NCBI GenBank assembly: GCA_018303885.1
Contig: JAGVXG010000001.1
Span: forward strand, 11,746 to 75,745
Source of the DNA: Candidatus Pacearchaeota archaeon
GTDB lineage: Archaea > Nanobdellota > Nanobdellia > Pacearchaeales > GW2011-AR1
Length of the DNA stretch: 64,000 nt
Direction of reading: 5' to 3'
Shown here: positions 21,952-58,997 of the stretch, in pieces
How positions within the stretch are numbered: position 1 is the stretch's first letter
How the letters are laid out: each line of letters opens with the position of its first letter
The notes under the pieces: model-generated
The model's database searches: none
Told to the model about the DNA's origin: nothing
What the model saw: the letters and a program-made list of their open reading frames with translations, nothing else
Translations under genes and position numbers: made by a program

Positions 21952-23349
21952 ATGAAAAAGATGTTTGTTTTGGTTTTTTTGTTTTTTGCTGGTATATTCC
22001 TAACTGTTTCATTGGTTTCTGCTATAAATCTCAAAGTTGAAAAAATAAGCAGTAGTGAGGCATGGGTTTCAGATCTTGACAAGCCTGTTGTTTTCGACTT
22101 AAAAATAACTAATCTCGGCTCCAGCGACAGTTTTAGTTTTTACAATCTTCTTGGTTTCAGAATGTTTCCTGTTGGAACAGTTCCGATATCTAATAGCGAA
22201 GTCAAAGAAGTAAGGGTTGAAGTTTTCCCTTTGTCAAAACTTCCTGACAGCGGATTTTATACATTTCCCTATTATATAAGAGGAAACGATGGCTCTGAAA
22301 TAAGCCAAAATTTAACATTCAAAATAATCGGCTTGGAAAATGCCTTTGAAGTTGGTTCTGCCGATGTCGATATAGAGGCTAATACCCTTGAAATATATCT
22401 CAAAAATAGGGAAAACTTTAATTTTGGAAATGTCGATGCGGTTTTTTCATCCCCCTTTTTTAATCTGGAAAAAAGCTTTACACTTGGCCCTTATGAAACA
22501 AAGAAGTTTGCAGTTCAGCTGAATAACGAGGATTTCAGAAGCCTGCTTGCCGGTTTTTACACGATGACGGCAGAAGTTACTGTTGACGGAGAAAAAGCAA
22601 AAGTTGAAGGCACTATAAAATTCGTCGAGAAAAACCTTGTTACAACGACAAAAAAGAATTTCGGACTTTTTGTGCATACTAGTGTAATTGAAAAGAAAAA
22701 TGAAGGAAACACAGTCGAGCGTTCTGAAACAGTCATAAAGAAGAATATTATCTCAAGACTTTTTACAACTTTCAGTCCTGAACCAGACCTCGTTGAAAGA
22801 GACGGCTGGGCAATATACTATACTTGGACAAGAGATGTTGGGCCTGGTGAAAATTATAACATCACTGTGAAAACCAACTGGCTTTTCCCATTCTTGATTA
22901 TTTTATTCTTAGTCATAGTTGTCGCCATTGTAAGACGTTATTCTGAATCAAGCCTGGTTCTAAAGAAAAAAGTTTCGTTTGTGAGCGCTAAAGGCGGTGA
23001 ATTTGCTCTCAAAGTTTCTATTCTTGTGAAGTCAAAGAGATACTTGGAAAGGGTTAATGTCATAGATAGGCTTCCTCCTTTGGTGAACATTTATGAGAGA
23101 TTTGGAGGAGACAGACCTTCGAGAGTAGATCAAAAAAACAGAAGGCTTGAATGGAATTTTGAAAAACTTTCTCCAGGGGAAACAAGAATTCTTAGTTATA
23201 TAATCTATTCCAAGGTTGGCGTTTTTGGAAAGTTTGCGCTGCCTACTGCAACAGGCATTTTTGAGAAAAACGGCGAGATTCATGAATCAGAATCTAACAG
23301 GGCATTTTTTGTTTCAGAACAAAGAGCGAAGCCGGAAGATGAACGATAA
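21952..23349 (+). CDS. Secreted surface protein with internal TM anchor
   Basis: 465 aa; N-terminal signal peptide, beta-rich ectodomain, TM at NWLFPFLIILFLVIVVAIV, C-terminal cytoplasmic domain. Confidence 0.5.
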   Translation: MKKMFVLVFLFFAGIFLTVSLVSAINLKVEKISSSEAWVSDLDKPVVFDLKITNLGSSDSFSFYNLLGFRMFPVGTVPISNSEVKEVRVEVFPLSKLPDSGFYTFPYYIRGNDGSEISQNLTFKIIGLENAFEVGSADVDIEANTLEIYLKNRENFNFGNVDAVFSSPFFNLEKSFTLGPYETKKFAVQLNNEDFRSLLAGFYTMTAEVTVDGEKAKVEGTIKFVEKNLVTTTKKNFGLFVHTSVIEKKNEGNTVERSETVIKKNIISRLFTTFSPEPDLVERDGWAIYYTWTRDVGPGENYNITVKTNWLFPFLIILFLVIVVAIVRRYSESSLVLKKKVSFVSAKGGEFALKVSILVKSKRYLERVNVIDRLPPLVNIYERFGGDRPSRVDQKNRRLEWNFEKLSPGETRILSYIIYSKVGVFGKFALPTATGIFEKNGEIHESESNRAFFVSEQRAKPEDER

Positions 23350-27820: not shown

Positions 27821-29083
27821 ATGCCAAAAGTAAGAATTGTCAATGAACTTGTTTCTAGAGAAAGAATTCCGGCAGGAAGAAACTATGCTAAATTTGCAGC
27901 AGAGCAGATAAGACCTGTTAATAGGTATCTTTTGGAATGGCTTGCTAGACAATCTTTTGCTTCTTATTCCCCAGATCCAACCTATGGGGAAATTAAAATA
28001 GAGGGAAGTTCCAATTATCTCGGTTTAGATATGAAACCTTATCAAGATTGTGTTAGTTGGAGTTTACGATTTAATCATAAAGTAAAAGAACCTGAAAGGC
28101 GTAGACATTCTCTCGGACCACATATTTTAAGTGATGCACTATTGCATATTGACAGGTTACCTGATGTTTCTAGATACAATAGCGGTCCTAGATTTTTTTC
28201 AACTTTAGATTATATTGATGTAAGGGTGGAAAATGGAGAGCGGGGATGGGTAAAACAAGGAATATTTCCGGTAGGCCCTCATATAAAGGGAGAAGAAAAT
28301 TCCCAGATTCTAGCATTCACTGACACAAGAAGAAATGCTGAAGTAGGATTCAGGGCAGCAATAGACTGGGCAAAATTCAGGACAATGGCTATCGCATGTA
28401 GCTCTTACGCTCTTGATCTCTTGAAAAGGGAAAAAATAGAAACTTGGGAGGATGGAGAAGCCTTTAGATATAAAATGGAAAAAACAATTCCCCTCATGGT
28501 TCAACTATTCCCTGACACAAGAAAGAGAACAGGACCATCTTCTCTGAAGCCTTACTATGAACCAGGTATCCTTGAAACAACAGTTGCCTTTATGCTTGGT
28601 GAAGATATAGATCCTAATTTTGGACCAAGACGCAAAAGAAGATATCCTATACATTACACTGAAGGTTCACCCGTGGAAATTTTTCCGCGACCCGGGAAAA
28701 AGAATGAATATGATGCAGTACTCCCTTTCAGGATTGCTTTAATGAGCAGTGTTGAAGGTGAAGAGATAGGAGATGTTTTGGAGCGCCACCTTTCGAAACG
28801 TCTTCCTGATGACTTTAAGATTTCATTTAAAGGGAATTATATGTATGTAAGACTTCATGTTCCAGAAGCCCATAAAACAATAGTGGAGTTAAAAGAAAAC
28901 AAAAAAACTGAACTTCAACATAGAATAGGGGATCTTTCGCAAGTTCTTCATGAGATAGATTATCTTAGAAGGGTTTGGGAAGAAGATCAAATGCCTGCCA
29001 TTAGAAAAGGATATCAAGGGATGGTAGATGCAGCAAGACAGGAACATTTTGGAAAAATAAGAGCTCTGAGAATTAATCTATAA
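27821..29083 (+). CDS. Hypothetical protein, apparently higher GC than surroundings
   Basis: 420 aa; Arg-rich, no motif recognised; directly downstream of tRNA-Asp. Confidence 0.5.
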   Translation: MPKVRIVNELVSRERIPAGRNYAKFAAEQIRPVNRYLLEWLARQSFASYSPDPTYGEIKIEGSSNYLGLDMKPYQDCVSWSLRFNHKVKEPERRRHSLGPHILSDALLHIDRLPDVSRYNSGPRFFSTLDYIDVRVENGERGWVKQGIFPVGPHIKGEENSQILAFTDTRRNAEVGFRAAIDWAKFRTMAIACSSYALDLLKREKIETWEDGEAFRYKMEKTIPLMVQLFPDTRKRTGPSSLKPYYEPGILETTVAFMLGEDIDPNFGPRRKRRYPIHYTEGSPVEIFPRPGKKNEYDAVLPFRIALMSSVEGEEIGDVLERHLSKRLPDDFKISFKGNYMYVRLHVPEAHKTIVELKENKKTELQHRIGDLSQVLHEIDYLRRVWEEDQMPAIRKGYQGMVDAARQEHFGKIRALRINL

Positions 29084-34122: not shown

Positions 34123-34431
34123 ATGCCAAAAGTAAGAATCAAACTAAACAGCACAGACATAGAAATGATTAATAGTATTTGCAATTCTATCAGAGACATA
34201 GCAAGCAAATCAGGAATTACTATTTCAGGGCCAGTGCCACTTCCAACGAAAAAATTGAGAATAACGACGAGAAAATCCCCATGCGGAAACGGAACCGCAA
34301 CCTTTGACAATTACGAAATGCGAATCCATAAACGTCTTATTGACCTTCCGGCAAATGAAAAAGTCCTCCATCATATAATGAGGATGCAGATTCCAAAGAA
34401 TGTCAATATTAAGATTGAGATGAAGGATTAA
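34123..34431 (+). CDS. rps10: 30S ribosomal protein S10 (uS10)
   Basis: 102 aa; MPKVRIKL..., ISGPVPLPTKKLRITTRKSP...YEMRIHKRLIDL. Confidence 0.85.
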   Translation: MPKVRIKLNSTDIEMINSICNSIRDIASKSGITISGPVPLPTKKLRITTRKSPCGNGTATFDNYEMRIHKRLIDLPANEKVLHHIMRMQIPKNVNIKIEMKD

Positions 34432-34485
34432 GTATTACCTTTTTGCTACCACAATTCTTTTATACTACTTTTTAGATTTTCTTCT

Positions 34486-34929
34486 ATGACTAGATTACTA
34501 AACATCTATTTTTTCGGTTCTATTTTTGGAGCAGAATCGAACAGACCTCTTGTTAAAGAACTGCTTGGACATGTAAAAACAAAAGGCCATGTTTTAAGCG
34601 AACACCTTTTTGATGATGATTACAGAACAAAAGAGACTTTAGATGCAAAAGGGATTCGTATTAGAGACCTAACTTGGATTAGGCAGTCAGATGTTTTAGT
34701 TGGAGATGTTACTGCTCCTAGTTTGGGTGTCGGGTACGAACTAAGGGACGCAGAGATTCTAGCTAAGCCAATTCTTGCCCTTTATAATACGGCTCGAGAA
34801 GGGAAATTATCAGCAATGATTGAAGGAGCTGCGCCAGGAATAACCGTCGTTAGGTACTCTGACTTAATTGGAGCTAAAAATCACATCGATGAATTTTTTG
34901 AATATTTGAAACTAACTGGCTTCAGGTAA
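34486..34929 (+). CDS. 2'-deoxynucleoside 5'-phosphate N-hydrolase (DNPH1/Rcl family)
   Basis: 147 aa; IYFFGSIFGAESNR, ...DVLVGDVTAPSLGVGYELRDAE..., SAMIEGAAPG - close to DNPH1 signature. Confidence 0.65.
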   Translation: MTRLLNIYFFGSIFGAESNRPLVKELLGHVKTKGHVLSEHLFDDDYRTKETLDAKGIRIRDLTWIRQSDVLVGDVTAPSLGVGYELRDAEILAKPILALYNTAREGKLSAMIEGAAPGITVVRYSDLIGAKNHIDEFFEYLKLTGFR

Positions 34930-34988
34930 TTATGAAATATATTTCTTGGAACAGATTTCTTTTTAAAACAACAAATTCTTAAGAGTCC

Positions 34989-36353
34989 ATGGGCTCTGCT
35001 GACCTAGAAAAAAAGGCGACGGAATTGGATTCTTTGAATCATGTCAGAAGAGAAATTCCTGGTGGCGGAGAAGTTTATGTTTTGGACACTGGCGCGGTAA
35101 TAGACAGTGAAGGCGAAGCAATGCTTCAGGCACTTCATTCCAGATCTGTTGGAGGTCTCAAAAGCCATCTAGAGGCTCTTAAACAAAAAGGCGCTGCGAA
35201 TTTCATGAACAGTTTCTATGTCGGCTATGGGCATAAATCTATTGGAGACTGCGGATCCACAACAATATTTATTGAAGGAGTTTCTATGTTCGTAGCAAAG
35301 GCTATTCAAGATAACAGATTATACAACGGTCAAGAAGCGTCTACAAGATATATTGATTTTTCAAGACAACCTTTTGTTAATCCTATTGGAACTGCAGAAG
35401 GGCAGGAATTATTAGAGTCTCAAAGAAGATTTTATCTTTCTATTTTAGACCCGATAAGAAGATTTTTGAAAGAGCAAAACCCACAATCTGGAGGTGAGAA
35501 GGATAGTGTCTATGAGAAGGCTATCAATGCAAGAGCTTTTGATATTGCCAGGGGATTTTTGCCTGCCGGGGCAGCAACAAATTTGGCATGGCACTCAAAT
35601 CTGAGACAGGTTTCAGATAGGTTATTGTTTCTGCGACATCATCCTCTAGAAGAAGTAAGGAATGTTGCCCACACAGTAGAGGGGGCAGTCCTTGAAGCCC
35701 ATCCAAACTCATTTACAAATAAGAGATACTCTGATACAGAGTCTTACCAAGATTTAATTGCAGGAAATTATTTTTATCATAATCCTGATTCGCCAGATAT
35801 TTCTGTGACCTCTAATTTGGATTTATCTGGATTAAGAGGGATGAGAGAGTTAATCGATAAAAGACCTGAAAAAACAGAGCTTCCTAAATTTTTAAGCCAA
35901 GCGGGAACAATTCATGCTGAATTTAAATTAGATTTTGGTTCCTTCAGGGATTTACAGAGACATAGGGCACTAGATCAACGAATGCCCCTGTTAACTACAG
36001 ATATTGGTTTTAATTCGTGGTATTTAGAAAACCTGCCCGAAGAAACTAGGGGAAGTGCAGAGGACTTTTTAGCCAATTTAAGAAAAAGAGTTTGGGGATT
36101 GAACGCTTCTTTAGAGGTGCGCCAATATTACGTTCCTATGGGATTTAATACTTCAAATTCAATAAGTGGTGATCTTCCTGCTATGCTGTACATGGTGGAG
36201 TTAAGGTCAACGAGATTTGTTCATCCAACATTAAGAAGAGTGGCAAGGGGTATTGGAGAATATATTGGCGGCCTGGGAGTTCCAGTACATTTTGATTCAG
36301 AACCTGATAGATTTGATGTAAAGAGGGGGGAGCAAGATATTTTTATTAAATAA
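34989..36353 (+). CDS. ThyX-like (flavin-dependent thymidylate synthase fold) protein, unusually long (454 aa)
   Basis: N-half GHKSIGDCGSTTIFIEGVSMFVAKAIQDNRLYNGQEASTRY aligns with ThyX GHeS..E...tF.i.gvSR......RHR..S..q.SqRY but RHR degenerate (DNR); C-half carries FRDLQRHRALDQR. Confidence 0.5.
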   Translation: MGSADLEKKATELDSLNHVRREIPGGGEVYVLDTGAVIDSEGEAMLQALHSRSVGGLKSHLEALKQKGAANFMNSFYVGYGHKSIGDCGSTTIFIEGVSMFVAKAIQDNRLYNGQEASTRYIDFSRQPFVNPIGTAEGQELLESQRRFYLSILDPIRRFLKEQNPQSGGEKDSVYEKAINARAFDIARGFLPAGAATNLAWHSNLRQVSDRLLFLRHHPLEEVRNVAHTVEGAVLEAHPNSFTNKRYSDTESYQDLIAGNYFYHNPDSPDISVTSNLDLSGLRGMRELIDKRPEKTELPKFLSQAGTIHAEFKLDFGSFRDLQRHRALDQRMPLLTTDIGFNSWYLENLPEETRGSAEDFLANLRKRVWGLNASLEVRQYYVPMGFNTSNSISGDLPAMLYMVELRSTRFVHPTLRRVARGIGEYIGGLGVPVHFDSEPDRFDVKRGEQDIFIK

Positions 36354-36354
36354 A

Positions 36355-37017
36355 ATGCCAAAGACAAAAAGAGGTTTGTTCATTGCCTTTGAAGGAATTG
36401 ACGGAAGCGGAACAAGCACGCATGTTCATAAGTTAGAGGAGAGGATAGAAGATTTAGACAAGTATCAAGATGTTATTAGGACTCATGAGCCATGGAAAAA
36501 TGAAGAAATAAAAAGAAAATTAGAAAATGATAAAGTTGCTTATTCTGATGGGTTGAAGATGGCAGGACTTTATATTGAAGATCGGACCCAACATACGAGA
36601 CAAATAATTAGGCCTGCTTTAGAAGAACAAGGCATAGTTATTTTATGTAAACGATATAAAATGTCAACGTGCGCTTATCAATGGGCACAAGGCGTTCCAT
36701 TGCATGATTTGTTATCAATGCATAATCATCGTGGCCTTCTTGTTCCAGATTTGACGTTTTATTTAGATATTCCTAGAAAAGTTGCGGAAAGAAGAATTGA
36801 AAGAAGAAAGAAAACCGAAAAATTTGAGAAAGATCCAAGGTTCACAGAAAAACTGATTAAGGCTTATAATGCTTTATTGGGCTTATCAGAAGCTGACCCA
36901 AGGATTTTCGGGAAAGTAGTAAGAATAGATGGAAACAGAAGAATTCAACAAGTTTCAGAAGATATTTTTTCAGAATTTTTGCCTTTGTATAACTCTTGGA
37001 TTTCTAGAAATAGGTGA
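36355..37017 (+). CDS. tmk: Thymidylate kinase
   Basis: 220 aa; P-loop FIAFEGIDGSGTSTH, DRY-like ...ILCKRYKMSTCAYQ, lid region. Confidence 0.8.
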   Translation: MPKTKRGLFIAFEGIDGSGTSTHVHKLEERIEDLDKYQDVIRTHEPWKNEEIKRKLENDKVAYSDGLKMAGLYIEDRTQHTRQIIRPALEEQGIVILCKRYKMSTCAYQWAQGVPLHDLLSMHNHRGLLVPDLTFYLDIPRKVAERRIERRKKTEKFEKDPRFTEKLIKAYNALLGLSEADPRIFGKVVRIDGNRRIQQVSEDIFSEFLPLYNSWISRNR

Positions 37018-37018
37018 A

Positions 37019-37062
37019 CGCCCACACCAGGAGTCGAACCTGGGTGCCTGTTAGAGGGTAAT
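37019..37062 (-). other. tRNA 3'-half-like fragment (class II variable arm + T arm + acceptor 3' strand), no 5' half found
   Basis: Minus strand reads CCTCTAACAGGCAC-CCAGG-TTCGACT-CCTGG-TGTGGGC-G, about 85% identical to 3' half of tRNA-Ser at 38539..38619; no complementary 5' acceptor strand within 150 nt. Confidence 0.4.
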
Positions 37063-37191
37063 AGAAAGATTTAAATTGTATATTTGTGTGTGTTTATCAT
37101 AGGGAAACAGGACCTGACGAACCCCACGCTTGACGTGGTTAGTAGGATAGACGGACCTCCTTACCCTATGCTTTTTTGAAGTTTTAAATTC

Positions 37192-37656
37192 TCATATGTT
37201 AAGTCTTTCAATGTTCAGCCAATTATCCAAAACAAGGCTTATTTGGTACTCGATAGTTCCGACTTTTAGCTCACTTTCCTTTACTACCTTTATGTTTTTT
37301 CCGTCAACAATCTTAACAAAGTTTTGAAAATTATTATATTGCTTGTTATCTATTGAAGCAAATATAAGGCAATTAGGATTATTTTTAATAAATTCCCCAA
37401 TATCAAGAAATATCTCTATATTCTGCCGGGTTTCTCTTATTTTATGTTTTAAAAAATAGTCTAATAAATTTTCTCTTTTGAAGGTTTTCTTAACATTCTT
37501 TAGGTAAAGCTTTTTATCTCCCGCTTCTCTATAGTGCCTAAATCGAAATATTTTTGGCAATAAATATTTTATTTTTAATTTTTCAATTATTATATACCCA
37601 ATCAAGTTATCTGAATAGTCTATAAAGATATAGTAGTCAAATTGTTTTGCTCCCAT
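37192..37656 (-). CDS. Hypothetical protein
   Basis: 154 aa; Asn/Lys/Ile rich. Confidence 0.4.
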   Translation of the reverse strand: MGAKQFDYYIFIDYSDNLIGYIIIEKLKIKYLLPKIFRFRHYREAGDKKLYLKNVKKTFKRENLLDYFLKHKIRETRQNIEIFLDIGEFIKNNPNCLIFASIDNKQYNNFQNFVKIVDGKNIKVVKESELKVGTIEYQISLVLDNWLNIERLNI

Positions 37657-37788
37657 TCACAACAATCCCCATACGGATTTATTAATTTTGTCTATTATGC
37701 TCAATACCAAGATTCTTCAAAATCATAATTTTATCGATGATAAAATACGCCCCAACCAAAACCCTATAAAAAGTGTTACAGTTGGGAT

Positions 37789-38451
37789 TTAGATTGCATT
37801 GTCTAATAATCTGTTTAGATAAAAGACACCAAAATTTCGTAAGAGTAGCGTTTTAGCCATGTTCATATGATAATCTGAACTAAAAGCATGCCCTAGTACC
37901 TCAGCAAGTCCTTTTTCCTCATCTATTCTAGCTATTTCACTTTCTTTTCCGTATCTTCTCAGTTTTTCGGGGCTTATTGCAACAATTTCAGGATCTGTTA
38001 TGTTTCTGTAGATTATTTCAATCCAACGACTCTGTCTAAAAGATTCGGGAGTATAAAATTGGCCTGACTCGTCATGTCTATTGCTTAAAACTACTGGCAC
38101 CCGATTAAATCTTATACTGTGGAAATCTCCATTCTCTCTCCAAAATAAAGATAAAAACCCGCTATTATCTGGTTCTGCACCAAGTTTCCAGTCCTCTTTG
38201 AATACTTCATATCCTCTAAGAGAAGGTATATCCGTGCCGTTTTGTTTCAAAATATCGAGATAGTATTCCATGTCTTGATTGTATTCTGACTTTATTACAT
38301 TTTTGGCGTCTTCAATTAAGGAGACATCTATTCTAATACTGATTGGTAAATCCATTACAGATAAATGTATGGGAACTGTTGCAGTCACAGCTTCGTCTCT
38401 TTGATAAATTGATTGAATAGGTAACTCTCCTCTAACTAATTTTTCTATCAT
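37789..38451 (-). CDS. Hypothetical protein
   Basis: 220 aa. Confidence 0.4.
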   Translation of the reverse strand: MIEKLVRGELPIQSIYQRDEAVTATVPIHLSVMDLPISIRIDVSLIEDAKNVIKSEYNQDMEYYLDILKQNGTDIPSLRGYEVFKEDWKLGAEPDNSGFLSLFWRENGDFHSIRFNRVPVVLSNRHDESGQFYTPESFRQSRWIEIIYRNITDPEIVAISPEKLRRYGKESEIARIDEEKGLAEVLGHAFSSDYHMNMAKTLLLRNFGVFYLNRLLDNAI

Positions 38452-38538
38452 AATAAAAAATGAAAATCAATCTTTAAAAGAATTATTACAATTGATAATA
38501 GTCTTTGAGAATTCTCTAACTGTATCACAAATAACATA

Positions 38539-38619
38539 CGCCCCAACCAGGACTCGAACCTGGATGCCTGTTAAGGCCGAGATTTCCAATCTCGCGCAGT
38601 ACCCTTGTGCCATTGGAGC
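38539..38619 (-). tRNA. tRNA-Ser(GGA), class II with long variable arm
   Basis: Minus strand: GCTCCAA-TG-GCA-CAAGGGTAC-TGC-G-CGAGA-TTGGAAA-TCTCG-GCCTTAACAGGCAT-CCAGG-TTCGAGT-CCTGG-TTGGGGC-G. Confidence 0.8.
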
Positions 38620-44494: not shown

Positions 44495-46372
44495 ATGAAA
44501 TCAGATAAGAAATCTCGTTCTAGCGATTCAGATTCAAGAAAGGAAGAAGAACACGACGAAGAACCAGAAATTCAGGAAATTCCGGGAATGGAGCTTGACA
44601 GCAAATATACGTCAAAAAAACCGGTAATACCTGAAAACTCCAATGAGGTTCAGAAAGAACTAGAAAAAGCAAAAAAAGAACTTGAGAAATTAAAAGCATT
44701 CATAGTAAAAAAATACCCCTTTACACAAGCCTTAGGAATCCTTTCTCCTCAGGCAAACAGATTTTTTATTGAAGATGAACTTGGGGAAGGCATTGCAAAA
44801 GAGCAGGCAGAAAGTCTGGAAAAAAAGATTCATCTCTACATGATTATTCCCGAGGAAAAATTCAAGGAAATTCCAAAGATAAAAAAAGAAATTGTTGAAG
44901 AAGTTGCCAGGACAAAACAAAATGTCTGGGTTTATATTAAGACTCCGGTTGACATTTGGGAATCTTGCTTAGACAGTAAATTTGACCTAGTGAATTTTAT
45001 TGCGCTTTCATTTCCGTTACACGATACAGGTATTTTGGCTTCGCTGAGAGTTGCGGCAATTCATAAATCTCTTGTTTTACAGAAATTTGACAAGTATATT
45101 GTCTCTTATGTAATTGCTGGGAGTTTGGTACGCGGTGATGTGACCAAAGAGTCTGATGTTGATGCTTTCGTGATTATTAATGATACAGATGTCAAGAGAA
45201 TGCCAAGACTTGAACTAAAAGAAAGGCTTAGGAGCATGATTCTTGAATATATTTCACAAGCAACCGCGCTTGCAGGGGCTAAAAAAAATGTCCTAAATGT
45301 TCAGGTTTATCTTCTTACTGATTTTTGGGAGTCTGTCAAAGATGCTCATCCTGTTATTTTCACATTTATTCGTGACGGTGTTCCTCTTTACGATCGAGGC
45401 ACGTTCCTGCCATGGAAAGCTCTTCTTAAGATGGGGCGTTTGAAGCCAAGCCCTGAGGCAATAGATATGTTCATGTCCATGGGAGACAAGACAGTAAAGA
45501 GAGCTAAAGCCACGCTTCTTGATATTCTTGTACATGATGTTTATTGGGGCGTTATGACGCCTTCACAGGCGCTACTGATGTTATATGGACTCCCACCGCC
45601 GACGCCAAAGCATACAGTAAGTGAAATGAAGAGAATTTTTGTCGACAAGGAAAAAATGCTGGAGAAAAAATATATTGCTATTCTTGAAAAAATTGTCGGT
45701 ATTTACAAGGATTTTGAACACGAGAAAATAAAGGAAATAAAAGGAGCAGAACTCGATGACTTGCTTCAGGGAACAGAAGATTATCTGGAAAGACTAAAGG
45801 AACTGAGAAAACAGATAGAAAAACGCGGGCAAGAAAAAACAATAGAACAGATTCACAAAGACGTATTTACTCTTTTAGAAGCCATACTCGGTAAAAAACC
45901 CCAATCACAATTAATATCTGAATTTGAAAATAACCTTGTTAAAAAAGGAAAGTTCACTCATCAGCATTTAAGGATTTTGAATGAATTGGTTAGCTCGAGG
46001 GCAGACTTCAAGAAAGGCAAGCTAAGCAGTCATAAGGTTGATGACGCAAGGAAAAATGCAACGATTCTTATCAATGACTTAATAGAATATTCCCAGAGAA
46101 GCGATTTGGTTTCGATGGAAAGAGGCAGAATGAGGCTCAGATACAAGAAAGCAGGAAAGGAAATGATTGCAGAGCTTCTGCATTGCAATGGGATTTCTTT
46201 CTTGTTTAGCGAAAACACAGTGAAAAAAATTACAGATAAAATTGAAGACTCTGGAATGAAAGAAGTTTCAGAATGCGTCGAGACCCAGAAGTCAAAAAAA
46301 GGCATCGAGATAAAGCCAAAAGTTTTCGAGCTGATAAAAAAAGAACTCGGCGATTTCGAGATAATTCTTTAA
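44495..46372 (+). CDS. Large polymerase-beta-superfamily nucleotidyltransferase fusion protein (NTase + helical C-terminal region), acidic N-terminus
   Basis: 625 aa; NTase motif GSLVRGDVTKESDVDAFVII; downstream LKMGRLKPSPEAIDMF segment shared with paralog at 50780..51634. Confidence 0.55.
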   Translation: MKSDKKSRSSDSDSRKEEEHDEEPEIQEIPGMELDSKYTSKKPVIPENSNEVQKELEKAKKELEKLKAFIVKKYPFTQALGILSPQANRFFIEDELGEGIAKEQAESLEKKIHLYMIIPEEKFKEIPKIKKEIVEEVARTKQNVWVYIKTPVDIWESCLDSKFDLVNFIALSFPLHDTGILASLRVAAIHKSLVLQKFDKYIVSYVIAGSLVRGDVTKESDVDAFVIINDTDVKRMPRLELKERLRSMILEYISQATALAGAKKNVLNVQVYLLTDFWESVKDAHPVIFTFIRDGVPLYDRGTFLPWKALLKMGRLKPSPEAIDMFMSMGDKTVKRAKATLLDILVHDVYWGVMTPSQALLMLYGLPPPTPKHTVSEMKRIFVDKEKMLEKKYIAILEKIVGIYKDFEHEKIKEIKGAELDDLLQGTEDYLERLKELRKQIEKRGQEKTIEQIHKDVFTLLEAILGKKPQSQLISEFENNLVKKGKFTHQHLRILNELVSSRADFKKGKLSSHKVDDARKNATILINDLIEYSQRSDLVSMERGRMRLRYKKAGKEMIAELLHCNGISFLFSENTVKKITDKIEDSGMKEVSECVETQKSKKGIEIKPKVFELIKKELGDFEIIL

Positions 46373-52593: not shown

Positions 52594-54393
52594 TTATTCC
52601 ATTGGTCTTCCGGACATTCTTGAGCCTTGTGCTCCTTGAGGAGTGCCACCAAGCTCTTTTGGAAGCCTTGCAAAGCTTGTTCCAAAAGTTTCATAATTTA
52701 TCTGGGGAAGCCATTGACCATCTAATCCTCCATGATATCCTTGGTAAAGTCCTGGGGCTTGAGACCAATAAGGAGCCATGTACATTGAATAAAGAGGAGA
52801 GCCCGCAGCCTCTAAAGTTTCCTGAAATGGAGAGGTTTTAATATGCTGCCACCAATCTGCTGCCTCAATAATTTTTCTTGCATTAAAGCCCTTTTCTCCA
52901 AGCTTTTCCATTATTTCTTTGAGGGGAACATTTCCCATTCCCATCGGGAGTTCTGTATGCTCCAAACCAAAATTGTCAGAAAGATGAACATGCTTTACAT
53001 AAGGTGCAACTTGCTCTGCTTCTTTTATGATTTCTTTTTCATCGTATCCAAATTTTCTCAGCATGTTTATGTGCCCTACGTCCCAGGTAGCTCCTATGAA
53101 TTTCTCTGCCTGGCGCTTTGCTTCTGATTCAGACATGCCTTCTTTTACTGCATTATCGACAAATTGCTTTCTTGATGCTACAACAATGTTTTTTATGTCT
53201 TTTCCTGTACTTAACGCAAAACCTGCTGGAGGATTTTCAATAACCAAAATCGGTGACTTATCTTTGAATTTTTTGTAAGCCTCAAAAGCAGCATTACCGT
53301 AAGTCTGCGAGGATTTTTTTATTGCAAAATCTTCTATTGGAACCCACATTTTTGGAGAGTTTTCTTCTAAAGTTCCAATCAATTCTCTCAATGCTTCTGA
53401 ATGGATTTTTGGATTGAGATATTTTTCTGGACTTTTTATCTTACCATCTTCTACACCGATTAGTTCTCCATATTTTTCAGAAAAGTTTTTTAAATCACTC
53501 ATCCGTTTCACATCACCATCCGCTTTCGCAAATTCATATGCTTTGCTAAAAAGAGAATCGGCAGACATTTTGGCTTGTTCAACAAATTCATATGCGGAAA
53601 AAATTTTGTGAATTTGCTCTTTTTCGTCTCCAGAAATTTCCGCAGGGTTTAATTTTCCGGATCTAAGTGCTGCGGCCCTTGCTATGACAATTGGGTGAAC
53701 ATCTTTCATAATTCTTTCGGCATTTTCTCTATTGACTTCTATTTGAAATAATGAGTTTCTCCATTCTGTGGAATTTAAATTATCCAAACGTCTTTCTGGA
53801 GTTTTTATTTCTCCCTTGACATTACCTCCGGGATGATATTCTAAATCAGGCTCCAACGGCGCCATTCTTCCTGTTTCTCTGTTAACGGCAATCATTTTTC
53901 TATAATCTCCTGTTTCTTCTGTTCTTTTTCTTGGGGGAAGAAATTGTGAACCTGGAATTCCTTCTGCAGAATGAAAGTTAACAGGAATATTTCCGCTTGG
54001 GTTTAGTTCATGGCTTCGCAAAAGAACTTGAGTAACTTTTTCCTCTGCAAGCTCTCTATCATTTTCGCTGAAACCACTTTGAGTAAATCCCGCCACATCT
54101 ATTACAGGACCGTGAAGAGAAACGTCAATACCGGTAAGTTTTGAAAGCCTGTGAACTTCTTTTAGATGCTGTTTTGGTATGGAGTCAAAAATTTTATCGG
54201 AAACGCCTTCAATTTCGATTTGTTTTGCTCCTGAAGAAAGTTTAGAGGAAACTTCCTGCAAGAGATTTGCTGAACGCGGGTCAGTAGTCATTCCTAGGCT
54301 TCCTGCGGCAAGATAAGTGTTAGAAGGGGGCGTTAAACCAGAATAACCTCCCTGATAAATGTCTGAGATTTTGTAGCCTGCTTTTTCCACCAT
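52594..54393 (-). CDS. Large xylose-isomerase-like TIM-barrel (sugar phosphate isomerase/epimerase / AP-endonuclease-2 fold) protein with long central insertion
   Basis: 599 aa; N-terminal ...KQIEIEG...GIDVSLHGPV and C-terminal ...KHVHLSDNFGLEHTELPMGMGNVPLKEIMEKL motifs typical of PF01261. Confidence 0.45.
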   Translation of the reverse strand: MVEKAGYKISDIYQGGYSGLTPPSNTYLAAGSLGMTTDPRSANLLQEVSSKLSSGAKQIEIEGVSDKIFDSIPKQHLKEVHRLSKLTGIDVSLHGPVIDVAGFTQSGFSENDRELAEEKVTQVLLRSHELNPSGNIPVNFHSAEGIPGSQFLPPRKRTEETGDYRKMIAVNRETGRMAPLEPDLEYHPGGNVKGEIKTPERRLDNLNSTEWRNSLFQIEVNRENAERIMKDVHPIVIARAAALRSGKLNPAEISGDEKEQIHKIFSAYEFVEQAKMSADSLFSKAYEFAKADGDVKRMSDLKNFSEKYGELIGVEDGKIKSPEKYLNPKIHSEALRELIGTLEENSPKMWVPIEDFAIKKSSQTYGNAAFEAYKKFKDKSPILVIENPPAGFALSTGKDIKNIVVASRKQFVDNAVKEGMSESEAKRQAEKFIGATWDVGHINMLRKFGYDEKEIIKEAEQVAPYVKHVHLSDNFGLEHTELPMGMGNVPLKEIMEKLGEKGFNARKIIEAADWWQHIKTSPFQETLEAAGSPLYSMYMAPYWSQAPGLYQGYHGGLDGQWLPQINYETFGTSFARLPKELGGTPQGAQGSRMSGRPME

Positions 54394-57509: not shown

Positions 57510-58997
57510 CTAAGTATAACTCGGCATTCCATGCGCTTTTTTGTATGTATCAAAAACCCTGAATGTGATATCTTCTGCATTTTTTGATGCAAGCTTTCTT
57601 ATAATTTCTTTTTCTGCATAATTTTCTGGTTTGATTTTCACTTTTTCTTTTTTCGCTTCGGCTTTTTTTTCAGCGGTTTCTGGGCTTGCTGGTTTTGATT
57701 CATAGCCCCCTATTAAAGCAGTGAATGGGTTTGAATCATCTTCTGATTTCTTGCGCTCTTGTTCGTCTTCTTTTTCTTCTAGGAAAAAATTTATTTCTTC
57801 CTGAAGCTGAGCCATGCTTTCTCCTGTTGAGCCTTCTATCAGCCTTAGAACATCACCGACATCAGAAGCATCGATTTCTTCATTAAGTTTTTTGAGCTCG
57901 TCTTCATTAAGAACATAAGACTTAAAAGACACGTCTGCTCTTCCGCCGAAGACATAATGAGACTGCTGACTCACTCTTTGCGGAATTCCGCGAAATCTGA
58001 AATCCACTAGAACACAGCTGTAATAATTTTTTGTCTTTAGTCTTTCAATTTCTTTTGGAAAATTTCCAGAAAGAACTTCTTCATGCACATCAATTTTTTT
58101 CTTGCCGAGAAGCGTTAATTCCAAGACAATAGTGTTGAATGCCTTGACAAGTGCAGGTTCGCGCCCTCCAGTATCCTTCATTTCAAGCTCTTGGGCAGCT
58201 TTTAAGTAGGGCTTAGCCCAGCGTGCGTATAGCTTCAAAGAATTAACCTGGCTGCTCAAATATGTTTTTTCAAGATTATATCTTTTTCTAAGTTCTCCTT
58301 CAGAATGCGCAAGCCAATCATTAAATTCTAAGACTCTCGCGCGAAGAATACGTTTTACACGGTCATTCAAGTCAACAGAATCCACTTCTTTGAGGTCTTT
58401 AACAAAAAGAAATGCGTCTATTAATGTTTGGAATCCCGCTTGTCCGAGAGCCATGGCTTTTATGCTAGAATTCCCTTTATTTATGTCAACCTTGTCCATC
58501 CACAATTGTTTTAATGCAAGAATTGCAGCTTCTTTTTTTTCTGATTTAAGGGCGTCGTAACTGCTTAAACGAATCCTGAATTCCTTAAGATCATAAATAA
58601 TATTCAATACGCTTCTAAGAACAGCATTGATGTCTGCGAGAATTTTTGACCCCTGCTGCTGCATGGCTGTTGCCCTCTGGCCTAATTCAGCAAAATGTCC
58701 TGAGCCAGGAGAAGAGGAAAAATTGTCCATGAATTTTTCTGTTTGTAAGCCAAGGTCGTTCATTAAATCAAGGATAAAGAAATAAACCGGCTCAAGGGTT
58801 TCCGAAGAGGAATCATAAACAAGCTCGTGCTTTGAAATTGGTTTTTCTTTTATTTCTTCTGAGTTAACTGCGCCTAGAGAACCATATTTCTTCAGCAAAT
58901 CCTTGCTGTTTTCTGCATAAAGCTTAGGATTTACCTTTCCGATTATCTGTGAAATTGTGGCGACCAATGTAAGGAACAAAGGTTCCTTGACAGTCAA
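57510..58997 (-). CDS. Hypothetical protein
   Basis: 495 aa; helical, C-terminal acidic/Lys-rich tail. Confidence 0.5.
   Translation of the reverse strand: MTVKEPLFLTLVATISQIIGKVNPKLYAENSKDLLKKYGSLGAVNSEEIKEKPISKHELVYDSSSETLEPVYFFILDLMNDLGLQTEKFMDNFSSSPGSGHFAELGQRATAMQQQGSKILADINAVLRSVLNIIYDLKEFRIRLSSYDALKSEKKEAAILALKQLWMDKVDINKGNSSIKAMALGQAGFQTLIDAFLFVKDLKEVDSVDLNDRVKRILRARVLEFNDWLAHSEGELRKRYNLEKTYLSSQVNSLKLYARWAKPYLKAAQELEMKDTGGREPALVKAFNTIVLELTLLGKKKIDVHEEVLSGNFPKEIERLKTKNYYSCVLVDFRFRGIPQRVSQQSHYVFGGRADVSFKSYVLNEDELKKLNEEIDASDVGDVLRLIEGSTGESMAQLQEEINFFLEEKEDEQERKKSEDDSNPFTALIGGYESKPASPETAEKKAEAKKEKVKIKPENYAEKEIIRKLASKNAEDITFRVFDTYKKAHGMPSYT

Follow-up and report, generated by a model that had tools for sequence, protein, structure and literature searches.

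The flavin-dependent thymidylate synthase ThyX (FDTS) is an antibiotic target, and members longer than the core domain occur, such as chlamydial ThyX with about 530 aa. The canonical enzyme (PF02511, TIGR02170; T. maritima 1O26/5CHP, M. tuberculosis 2AF6) has about 220-250 aa and one domain, and forms four sites per tetramer. Thy1 from T. thermophilus (PDB 6J61) is also longer than core ThyX, but according to the title of its entry the addition is a C-terminal domain rather than another ThyX fold. The canonical homotetramer assembles each active site from three subunits, where the first provides the RHR motif and an R174-type arginine, which contact FAD and dUMP, the second provides a Ser and an Arg to FAD, and the third provides Ser-x-Arg-Tyr to dUMP (PMC6514825). 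Because this active site is common to three identical subunits, the roles of the subunits are hard to assign by mutagenesis. Acid quenching of ThyX reactions has trapped 5-hydroxymethyl-dUMP (hmdUMP) as a catalytic intermediate, and the same nucleotide is made by a phage ThyA homologue (PMC3498832).

Human DNPH1 is a drug target in terms of PARP-inhibitor sensitisation, and its physiological substrate was identified only recently. Eukaryotic DNPH1/Rcl is a 5-hydroxymethyl-dUMP N-hydrolase, and several of its structures are available (PDB 2KHZ, 4FYH, 8OS9, 9DA1). In the LTEHV motif of human DNPH1, E55 has been proposed to activate water and H56 contacts O2 of the base, whereas the R30-D73 pair contacts O4 of the base through water (PMC10603095). 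The 5'-phosphate is held by a Ser in the PSLGVGYE motif and by a Ser that a C-terminal helical extension contributes in trans (PMC10603095). MilB and BlsM are hydroxymethyl-CMP N-glycosidases, and MilB acts on a 5-hydroxymethyl pyrimidine nucleotide (PMC10603095).

We analysed a 64-kb stretch of DNA (hereafter, the window) from Pacearchaeota (DPANN), in which three co-directional ORFs lie on the forward strand at 34486-34929, 34989-36353, and 36355-37017. They encode a homologue of the DNPH1/Rcl-family 2'-deoxynucleoside 5'-phosphate N-glycosidases (147 aa), a ThyX-like protein of 454 aa (hereafter, long ThyX), and thymidylate kinase (Tmk, 220 aa). An earlier interpretation made from the letters of this DNA (the sequence-only reading) had described a closely spaced trio (0-60 nt) with a DNPH1/Rcl-like first gene and a canonical Tmk as the third, and our results agree with this description. 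The measured spacers are 59 nt and 1 nt, and the identity of the first protein follows from the PDB and Pfam matches given below. With 112.5 bits, the third protein is above the cut-off (83.25) of the dTMP kinase equivalog TIGR00041; it also matches PF02223 with 99 bits and has the P-loop FEGIDGSGTST. With the start of tmk 1 nt past the ThyX stop, the arrangement makes translational coupling of the two genes likely. Upstream of the DNPH1-like gene, the co-directional gene of ribosomal protein S10 (34123-34431, forward strand; Pfam PF00338, 104 bits) precedes it by a 54-nt spacer. A TATA-box-like motif, TTTTATA (34458-34464, forward strand), has its centre about 25 nt before the ATG of the DNPH1-like gene and is a possible archaeal promoter (no chance test; the intergenic DNA is AT-rich). 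A second TATA-like motif, TTTTTAAAA (34960-34968, forward strand), lies about 25 nt upstream of the ThyX ATG and is putative, both motifs having been read from the letters. The window also carries genes for thermosome, aminoacyl-tRNA synthetase, and ribosomal proteins. A tRNA-like sequence after tmk was considered as an intron-containing tRNA and rejected, as neither ARAGORN nor Rfam detected a tRNA there; the sequence duplicates 36 nt of the 3' end of tRNA-Ser.

The 454-aa protein matches Pfam Thy1 (PF02511) with 67.3 bits (cut-off, 24.8) over residues 60-239 only, and lies below the NCBIfam equivalog TIGR02170 (32 bits; cut-off, 87.9). There was no match to any NCBIfam model specific to the long form. 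This protein belongs to a large and highly conserved family of about 450 aa from DPANN archaea, CPR and other bacteria, and jumbo phages. We found more than 4,237 homologues, the best 120 of which have 57-72% identity over 97-99% of the length, and 489 clusters (50% identity, E<1e-30) with members that are nearly all 430-500 aa long. A single-sequence scan of genome contigs located long ThyX in MAGs of Saccharibacteria, Paceibacterota, Gammaproteobacteria, and Pseudobdellovibrionaceae (6 loci), and a viral scan located it on dozens of contigs from phages, which measure about 13-320 kb and in many cases exceed 100 kb. The HMM search, which the sequence-only reading had suggested as a check, confirmed through Pfam Thy1 that the protein is related to ThyX. 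Both a mis-called start and an assembly fusion of this ORF were rejected on the basis of thousands of full-length homologues and of an identical gene present on 23 contigs. We found no description of a tandem or fused ThyX in the open-access literature, and no enzymology of the long family in the literature searched.

In terms of architecture, long ThyX has two domains per chain, unlike the canonical enzyme. The N-half (residues 1-243; 34989-35717, forward strand) is a ThyX-fold domain recognisable by sequence, as supported by Pfam Thy1, a profile alignment, hhalign, and AF2 secondary structure. The C-half (residues 244-454 and the stop codon; 35718-36353, forward strand) is a second ThyX-fold domain that sequence searches did not recognise. 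When the profiles of the two halves were compared using hhalign, no significant match was obtained (E 0.13-0.44), and the C-half profile found no ThyX among the PDB sequences. Sequence comparison gave no signal of duplication, and the duplication was settled only by structure comparison of the AF2 model, which found the fold of canonical ThyX in both halves. The full model matches 6J61 weakly (Foldseek E 5.7e-2).

The two halves differ in their catalytic residues. On the one hand, the N-half, aligned to C. glutamicum ThyX (profile alignment) and T. maritima ThyX (hhalign), has D108-N109-R110 (35310-35318) instead of RHR, and retains H82-K-S84 (35232-35240), K104, E116, S118-T-R120-Y121 (35340-35351), R188, and R206 (35604-35606). 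On the other hand, the C-half bears R320-D321, R324-H325-R326 (35958-35966), R406 (36204-36206), and H412, and is without the SxRY and GHxS motifs and an equivalent of R165. The motif RHRxxSxxxxSxR is not contiguous in either domain, and this split between RHR and SxRY holds in 180 diverse members of the family (133 cellular and 47 viral). In this set, S84, S118, R120, R320, D321, R324, R406, and H412 are invariant, 162 of the 180 members have H325 and 177 have R326, and the RHR positions of the N-half read D, variable, and P. R216 of the N-half (equivalent to R174) and R331 of the C-half (equivalent to R90) are not conserved. All classes of FAD- and dUMP-contacting residues of canonical ThyX occur somewhere in the long chain and, at the level of the alignment, each of the three canonical subunit roles appears to be represented once per chain. 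Structure comparison and residue conservation support the view of the sequence-only reading that two ThyX units are fused here into a pseudo-dimer whose active-site residues are rearranged, and the degenerate RHR (DNR) of its N-half and the true RHR located later correspond to D108-N109-R110 and R324-H325-R326, respectively.

Considering these residues, we propose that the C-half would serve only the first role, through R324-H325-R326 and R406. The N-half would serve the second role (S84 and R206) and the third (K104, E116, S118, R120, and Y121), and only these. In this case, a homodimer of long ThyX would mimic the canonical tetramer, with two live sites instead of four. The predicted homodimer, its two-site stoichiometry, and the pairing of the halves come from hhalign alignments of little statistical weight (probability 9-28%) and the register of secondary structure. 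The C-half could instead be a structural scaffold or a regulatory pseudo-enzyme, with sites built differently from those of canonical ThyX, for example, four sites formed by N-half residues together with new residues. The dependence of the residue mapping on weak hhalign alignments would leave room for this, and K104 (129/133), Q107, and D108 (108/133) of the N-half, which are conserved in the cellular representatives and less so in the viral ones, might have new roles. However, the RHR and R406 of the C-half vary little or not at all among 180 divergent members, including those of phages, while decay has affected exactly the residues that partner each lost role (R216, R331, and P at position 397), and we consider a scaffold to be quite improbable. 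Such a reciprocal pattern of keeping and decay is what a division of labour within one composite site predicts.

The base composition of the trio is close to that of the window. The GC contents of the three genes are 0.385, 0.396, and 0.350 against a mean of 0.348 (sd 0.039; 64 window ORFs), and their GC3 values are 0.277, 0.292, and 0.262 against 0.285 (sd 0.055; window ORFs). The small GC excess comes from the first and second codon positions, a pattern shared by other conserved enzymes encoded in the window, and the contrast with the right flank is due to low-GC hypothetical ORFs (0.27) between repeats of the tRNA-Ser 3' end. Because GC3 is at the window average, the composition gives no indication of a recent or viral transfer. 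The closest long ThyX homologues (72% identity) are on syntenic archaeal contigs, and the viral homologues reach at most 48% identity. The sequence-only reading had regarded the trio as GC-richer than its flanks and as a possible recent acquisition from a virus; neither idea held, and a compositional island or viral transfer was rejected on GC3 and synteny. In relatives, S10 is the synteny anchor of the operon, and at five loci (L011, L020, L034, L148, and L149) it is followed by a DNPH1-like or MazG-like gene and a thymidylate synthase. Taken together, the locus is probably a chromosomal, vertically maintained thymidylate operon of Pacearchaeota, comprising S10, the DNPH1-like gene, long ThyX, and tmk, in which the 454-aa protein is the flavin-dependent thymidylate synthase of the cell with two ThyX-fold domains in one chain.

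The genomic context of long ThyX is that of an ordinary thymidylate synthase. In 86 cellular loci, Tmk was the commonest neighbour (42), followed by Dcd/dUTPase-like proteins (29), dCMP deaminase (19), SHMT (13), MazG-like proteins (10 and 7, in two clusters), and DHFR (5). Canonical ThyX has the same context (Tmk, Dcd, dCMP deaminase, and SHMT). The sequence-only reading had suggested a pathway for thymidylate or a modified pyrimidine deoxynucleotide. In the second form of this idea, long ThyX would not be a thymidylate synthase but a hydroxymethylase or other modifier for a non-canonical pyrimidine deoxynucleotide, and the trio would be a modified-base pathway, perhaps of viral origin. This is very unlikely, considering that the neighbourhood is that of canonical dTMP synthesis and that relatives have ThyA with DHFR, or a short RHR-bearing ThyX, at the same operon position. 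In addition, the dUMP- and FAD-contacting residues are invariant, GC3 is average, and the nearest relatives are cellular and syntenic. Nor was another synthase found in the window: single-sequence phmmer searches of limited sensitivity for ThyA, short ThyX, Dcd, dCMP deaminase, SHMT, MazG, DHFR, and NUDIX matched only Tmk, and by the same method no dUMP-supplying gene, SHMT, or folate gene was seen within these 64 kb.

The 147-aa protein resembles eukaryotic DNPH1, with about 40% identity to animal sequences, and its alignment to the DNPH1/Rcl structures of rat and human in the PDB (E 1.5e-21 to 1e-17) covers nearly the whole length. It also matches Pfam PF05014 (32.6 bits; cut-off, 28.8) and belongs to a very large family (at least 7,992 homologues). 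The shared Y/D/E triad consists of Y8 (34507-34509), D61 (34666-34668), and E85, which correspond to human Y24, D80, and E104 when aligned to rat Rcl with HMMER and do not vary among 12 prokaryotic homologues. E85 lies with S79 in PSLGVGYE (34717-34740), and S109 lies in LSAMIEG (34807-34827) on the helix extension. These two serines of the 5'-phosphate pocket are conserved in the rat and human alignment and in the 12 homologues. The E-H motif is LSEHL (residues 37-41; 34594-34608) as compared with human LTEHV, with E39 nearly invariant and H40 present in 9 of the 12. Accordingly, almost every residue with which human DNPH1 acts on hmdUMP is present in the protein. The exception is the R30-D73 pair, where F14 takes the place of R30 and the alignment has a gap around D73; the position of R30 is F or W in archaeal homologues, whereas several bacterial ones keep R, and those at L151 and L158 keep GSIRGG. 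Because R30 and D73 are absent, the specificity may differ from that of human DNPH1.

The fold and the covalent glutamate mechanism are also shared with MilB/BlsM, with the phage phosphodeoxyribosyl-transferase DmtZ, a family member able to transfer deoxyribose 5-phosphate, and with the nucleoside 2-deoxyribosyltransferases (NDT). However, where MilB has Phe the 147-aa protein has the Tyr associated with deoxyribose, and where MilB has Glu it has the His associated with a uracil-type O2 (PMC10603095), and NDT transferases are without the 5'-phosphate pocket. Its similarity to BlsM (E 0.027) and to NDT (E 0.17) is weak compared with that to DNPH1 (E 1e-21). We expect that the protein would be a dimeric dNMP N-glycosidase with a covalent Glu85 intermediate, in which E39 and H40 would assist the triad, and S79 and S109' would hold the phosphate.

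Unlike eukaryotic DNPH1, for which an operon with a thymidylate synthase and Tmk has no counterpart, the DNPH1-like gene is repeatedly found beside thymidylate synthases of any type, and this was the less expected result. A thymidylate synthase (ThyA, short ThyX, or long ThyX) adjoins it in five of ten sampled homologue loci, although three of these five are from related archaea and hence not independent. In one relative, the operon is replaced by a DNPH1-like gene (64% identity) followed by ThyA, DHFR, and Tmk (L156). S10 and a DNPH1-like gene are followed by ThyA at L148 and by a short ThyX bearing RHR at L149, and at the bacterial locus L151 the DNPH1-like gene is beside ThyA. L158 has dCMP deaminase, a kinase, long ThyX, Tmk, the DNPH1-like gene, Dut, and MazG. 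The recurrence of the combination at L156 and L158, with other synthase types and gene orders, is in line with the earlier description of the trio as one thymidylate-centred module. From the side of long ThyX the link is rare, with three weak NDT-like neighbours in 84 other cellular loci and no DNPH1-like neighbour in 51 viral loci.

If the protein were a phosphodeoxyribosyl-transferase, it would move deoxyribose 5-phosphate from a scavenged dNMP to uracil or thymine. The synthase would then receive dUMP, or Tmk would receive dTMP, a supply fitting for a DPANN cell that lives by scavenging. The position upstream of the synthase is occupied in relatives by dCMP deaminase, a supplier of dUMP, or by a MazG-like NTP pyrophosphohydrolase, and Dcd is also a frequent neighbour of long ThyX. 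Nevertheless, this function is unlikely, as E39, equivalent to the proposed water activator E55, is almost always kept in prokaryotic homologues, the protein is far closer to DNPH1 hydrolases (E 1e-21) than to NDT transferases (E 0.17), and at L158 the gene is beside the house-cleaning genes Dut and MazG, with dCMP deaminase already there. General catabolism, in which a broad dNMP hydrolase would give bases and deoxyribose 5-phosphate for salvage or carbon and its adjacency to ThyX would be meaningless, is likewise improbable. The size of the family would fit such a role, as would three of the ten homologue loci with no nucleotide genes nearby and the hydrolysis of several dNMPs by rat Rcl and the slow activity of human DNPH1 on other dNMPs (PMC10483697). 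On the other side, the synthase adjacency in half of the sampled loci involves three synthase types and unrelated genomes, and is far above chance for one gene among about a thousand or more.

We favour a sanitation function, which would be tied to thymidylate synthesis as such. The most likely substrate, plausible from the residues and context above, is an aberrant 5-substituted dUMP such as 5-hydroxymethyl-dUMP, which the enzyme would destroy before its phosphorylation by Tmk, the kinase that turns dTMP into dTDP. More broadly, and only tentatively, prokaryotic DNPH1 homologues may be dedicated to thymidylate synthesis, removing hmdUMP, or a related 5-substituted dUMP made in error, that leaks from the exocyclic-methylene chemistry common to ThyA and ThyX, before Tmk passes it on to the pool of DNA precursors. 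In this case, hmdUMP sanitation would be a proofreading of thymidylate synthase that long predates the eukaryotic turnover of 5hmC, and tandem ThyX would be a half-of-the-sites heterodimer form of the synthase.

In summary, this operon is probably one of housekeeping thymidylate synthesis, and its synthase is a little-studied two-in-one ThyX. The very large long ThyX family probably provides thymidylate synthesis in numerous CPR and DPANN organisms and jumbo phages, and lies below the curated equivalog threshold. Tandem ThyX, with each half keeping some roles only, would be a ready-made asymmetric enzyme, with a predicted stoichiometry of one FAD for each 450-aa chain and two sites for each dimer. 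Additionally, the operon-level tie of prokaryotic DNPH1 homologues to thymidylate synthases of either fold points to a testable and older source of the DNPH1 substrate, and these loci may provide simple microbial systems for studying its origin.

The ORF listing agrees with the sequence-only reading that three same-strand genes lie together. On the plus strand, we found a gene for a 147-aa homologue of the DNPH1/Rcl family (DNPH1-like, 34486-34929), a gene for a 454-aa protein (long ThyX, 34989-36353) and a gene for a 220-aa thymidylate kinase (Tmk, 36355-37017), with spacers of 59 nt and 1 nt, respectively. The gene for ribosomal protein S10 ends 54 nt upstream of the DNPH1-like gene on the same strand. 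Besides S10, the window has genes for a thermosome, seryl-, glutamyl- and histidyl-tRNA synthetases, a transporter and four tRNAs, and by this gene content it is an ordinary archaeal chromosome. A public record assigns the 147-aa protein to a Candidatus Pacearchaeota archaeon, and an identical long ThyX gene occurs on 23 metagenomic contigs with unchanged neighbours. TATA-like motifs (TTTTATA at 34458-34464 and TTTTTAAAA at 34960-34968) are centred approximately 25 nt upstream of the start codons of DNPH1-like and long ThyX; on an AT-rich background, these candidate motifs would fit separate leaderless transcripts. Elsewhere in the window, four ORFs of 625, 465, 420 and 417 aa (44495-46372, 21952-23349 and 27821-29083 on the plus strand and 57510-58763 on the minus strand) showed no Pfam match at E<=1e-5, and the sole match of a 599-aa ORF (52594-54393) was a partial AP_endonuc_2 TIM-barrel segment.

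In terms of base composition, the trio had been read as richer in GC than its surroundings, which the composition of the 64 window ORFs contradicts. The GC3 values of DNPH1-like, long ThyX and Tmk (0.277, 0.292 and 0.262) are near the window mean of 0.285 (sd 0.055). Their total GC (0.385, 0.396 and 0.350; window mean 0.348, sd 0.039) shows a slight excess that arises at the first two codon positions, a pattern shared by the window's other conserved enzymes, and the apparent contrast is due to the right flank. There, the 36 nt immediately after the tmk stop codon (37018-37053) repeat the 3' end (38538-38573) of a minus-strand tRNA-Ser(gga) gene (38539-38619) at 89% identity, and a further 13-nt copy lies at 37746-37758. 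Between the repeats are two hypothetical ORFs without Pfam match, 37192-37656 (GC 0.27) and 37789-38451 (GC 0.35). Neither ARAGORN nor Rfam found a complete tRNA at 37018-37172. The repeats look like att-type remnants of one or two small elements that may have integrated into tRNA-Ser.

Long ThyX is weakly recognized by standard models. Pfam Thy1 covers residues 60-239 only (67 bits), and the ThyX equivalog TIGR02170 scores 32 bits, below its cut-off of 87.9. As a single query against PDB sequences the protein gave zero matches, and its family profile reached C. glutamicum ThyX weakly, at E 0.013. An artefact or a one-off protein is ruled out by a large full-length family. The search scored more than 4,237 homologues, and the top 120 are 57-72% identical across 97-99% of the length. 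When representatives at 50% identity were searched exhaustively, 489 clusters reached E<1e-30, almost all of them 430-500 aa long and matching end to end. The family has members in MAGs of Saccharibacteria, Paceibacterota, Gammaproteobacteria and Pseudobdellovibrionaceae, and some lie on contigs that reach 2.8 Mb. Large phages commonly carry tandem homologues as well, 31-48% identical across almost the full length: they were found on dozens of IMG/VR phage contigs (L094-L128; approximately 13-320 kb, many >100 kb) and in isolated Vibrio jumbo phages (GenBank MK308674-MK308677 and MH595538), whose records label the gene hypothetical or 'thymidylate synthase-like'. In a more divergent set of viral sequences (L129-L147), the match is mainly to the N-half. 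Chlamydial ThyX, at about 530 aa, may be related to the tandem protein.

In the M. tuberculosis (Mtb) and H. pylori (Hp) structures, the ThyX site is assembled from three subunits (review PMC6514825). From subunit A come the RHR motif, in contact with dUMP and with the phosphates, ribityl and isoalloxazine of FAD, and Arg199 (Mtb numbering; R174 in T. maritima), a dUMP contact; subunit B provides Ser71 and Arg190 to FAD; and dUMP receives Arg87, Ser105, Arg107 and the lid residue Tyr108 from subunit C (PMC6514825). We mapped these roles onto residues 1-243 (N-half) and 244-454 (C-half) of long ThyX by C. glutamicum profile alignment, T. maritima hhalign and secondary-structure register, and then tallied each position across 133 cellular representatives and 47 viral members (180 in all). 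The numbering of the T. maritima sequence fits the PDB-title mutants H53D, Y91F, E144R and R174K.

Role A is lost from the N-half, where the RHR positions are D108, a variable residue and mostly Pro, and R216 is Arg in only 40/133 cellular members. It is kept in the C-half, as R324 and R406 (both 180/180), H325 (162/180) and R326 (177/180). Role B is kept in the N-half, with S84 in 180/180 and R206 in 145/180 members; S84 sits 24 residues ahead of the motif position, the same spacing as in Mtb and Hp ThyX. The C-half has no GHxS motif and Pro at the R165 position. Likewise, the N-half keeps role C (S118 and R120, 180/180; Y121, 176/180; E116, 177/180; K104, 129/133 cellular and 26/47 viral), and the C-half lacks the Ser and has Arg at R331 in 38/133 cellular members. 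Such reciprocal decay is expected if each chain feeds composite sites. The pseudo-dimer of the sequence-only reading was right; the protein has two ThyX-fold halves with split, conserved active-site residues. We infer that a long ThyX homodimer would mimic the canonical tetramer and have two functional sites, in which the residues would converge in space, each C-half supplying role A and the two N-halves supplying roles B and C in turn.

Regarding function, we clustered the ORFs lying up to 2.5 kb from long ThyX at 86 cellular loci and assigned neighbour functions from representative sequences, some checked with Pfam. Tmk was found near long ThyX at 42/86 loci, Dcd/dUTPase-like proteins at 29, dCMP deaminase at 19, a P-loop kinase of approximately 183 aa at 16, SHMT at 13, MazG-like proteins in two clusters at 10 and 7, and DHFR at 5. 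The operon position in relatives is stronger evidence of a synthase role than these counts. Among ten sampled loci with DNPH1-like homologues (32-64% identical), L148 has S10, DNPH1-like and ThyA in order; L149 has S10, DNPH1-like and then a short, 306-aa ThyX bearing a normal RHR...STRY motif; and L156 has DNPH1-like (64% identical to that of the window), ThyA, DHFR and Tmk, tightly packed. Exchange of ThyX for ThyA and DHFR at one operon position classically marks functional equivalence. Within the 64-kb window, a second thymidylate synthase was not found. Gene context and operon displacement both point to long ThyX as a predicted thymidylate synthase, and a modified-base role for it is unsupported, as is transfer from a virus. 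As a whole, the observation in the sequence-only reading was largely right. The window, L148, L149 and L156, which share SerRS and S10 synteny within one archaeal lineage, hold four solutions at one position, namely long ThyX, short ThyX with RHR, ThyA and ThyA plus DHFR, with DNPH1-like retained upstream; this is repeated non-orthologous displacement of thymidylate synthase.

Against structures of rat and human DNPH1/Rcl, the DNPH1-like protein scored E values from 1.5e-21 to 1e-17; its matches to Blasticidin M (E 0.027) and a nucleoside 2-deoxyribosyltransferase (NDT; E 0.17) were weak. Its family is very large in metagenomes (at least 7,992 matches at E<=1e-10). Compared with human DNPH1 bound to hmdUMP (PMC10603095), it retains the Y/D/E triad (Y8, D61, E85), the Glu-His helical motif (LSEHL; human LTEHV), the phosphate serine (PSLGVGYE) and the trans serine on an LSAMI helix extension, which in the human enzyme also positions the 5-hydroxymethyl group (PMC10603095). 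The retained residues are invariant or nearly so across 12 prokaryotic homologues. The sole loss is the R30-D73 pair (F14 here), which in the human enzyme contacts O4 via water (PMC10603095). A Tyr in place of Phe points to a deoxyribose substrate, and a His in place of Glu to a uracil-type base. We consider 5hmdUMP a reasonable candidate substrate on four grounds: the closest characterized homologues act on it physiologically, its recognition elements are conserved, acid quenching of ThyX reactions has captured it as a catalytic intermediate, and a phage ThyA homologue produces it (PMC3498832). The main rival reading is that the protein is a transferase, for which a phage DNPH1-like enzyme is a precedent (PMC12884076), but the water-activating Glu is nearly invariant, which argues for hydrolysis.

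Across the sampled loci, the DNPH1-like gene tracks thymidylate synthesis. It also adjoins ThyA in a bacterial context with LolA and FabA (L151), lies 3.7 kb from SHMT (L150), and accompanies cytidylate kinase and an ITPase-type NTPase (L153); L152, L155 and L157 have no relevant neighbours. On a 324-kb metagenomic contig (L158, 1-6590), a co-directional deoxynucleotide super-operon encodes dNMP kinase, dCMP deaminase, a P-loop kinase, long ThyX (45.7% identity, RHR at 296), Tmk, DNPH1-like, dUTPase/DCD, MazG, an unknown gene and a second P-loop kinase. Among loci with long ThyX the link is uncommon: weak NDT-like neighbours occur at 3 of 84 other cellular loci and at none of 51 viral loci. 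Three loci of other lineages carry distant NDT/DNPH1-superfamily genes (L031 7891-8196, L080 4436-4831, L092 8120-8554; 41-52 bits on the DNPH1-like profile) at approximately 1 kb or less from long ThyX, that of L031 adjoining dCMP deaminase and MazG genes.

Databases list these proteins under the names 'FAD-dependent thymidylate synthase' and 'nucleoside 2-deoxyribosyltransferase', so the gene identities are not new. In the open-access literature searched, we found no description of a tandem ThyX with split, reciprocally decayed roles, or of DNPH1 homologues recurring in operons with thymidylate synthases of one fold or the other, and the two features appear to be undescribed within that scope. 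In the slot between S10 and ThyX, the nearest long-ThyX relatives carry MazG-like NTP pyrophosphohydrolase genes with or without NUDIX genes, or dCMP deaminase. A 148-aa MazG-like protein (PDB 3NL9-like) occupies the DNPH1-like slot in L011 (3567-7410; ThyX 71% identical to that of the window), L020 and L034, and L011 additionally has a 316-aa NUDIX protein, a 361-aa Tmk-NUDIX domain fusion and, downstream, SHMT and a FolC-like ligase. Because the slot contents vary, the trio represents one version of an adaptable operon that combines a thymidylate synthase, Tmk and nucleotide-pool enzymes. The proposal that the three genes work together is supported.
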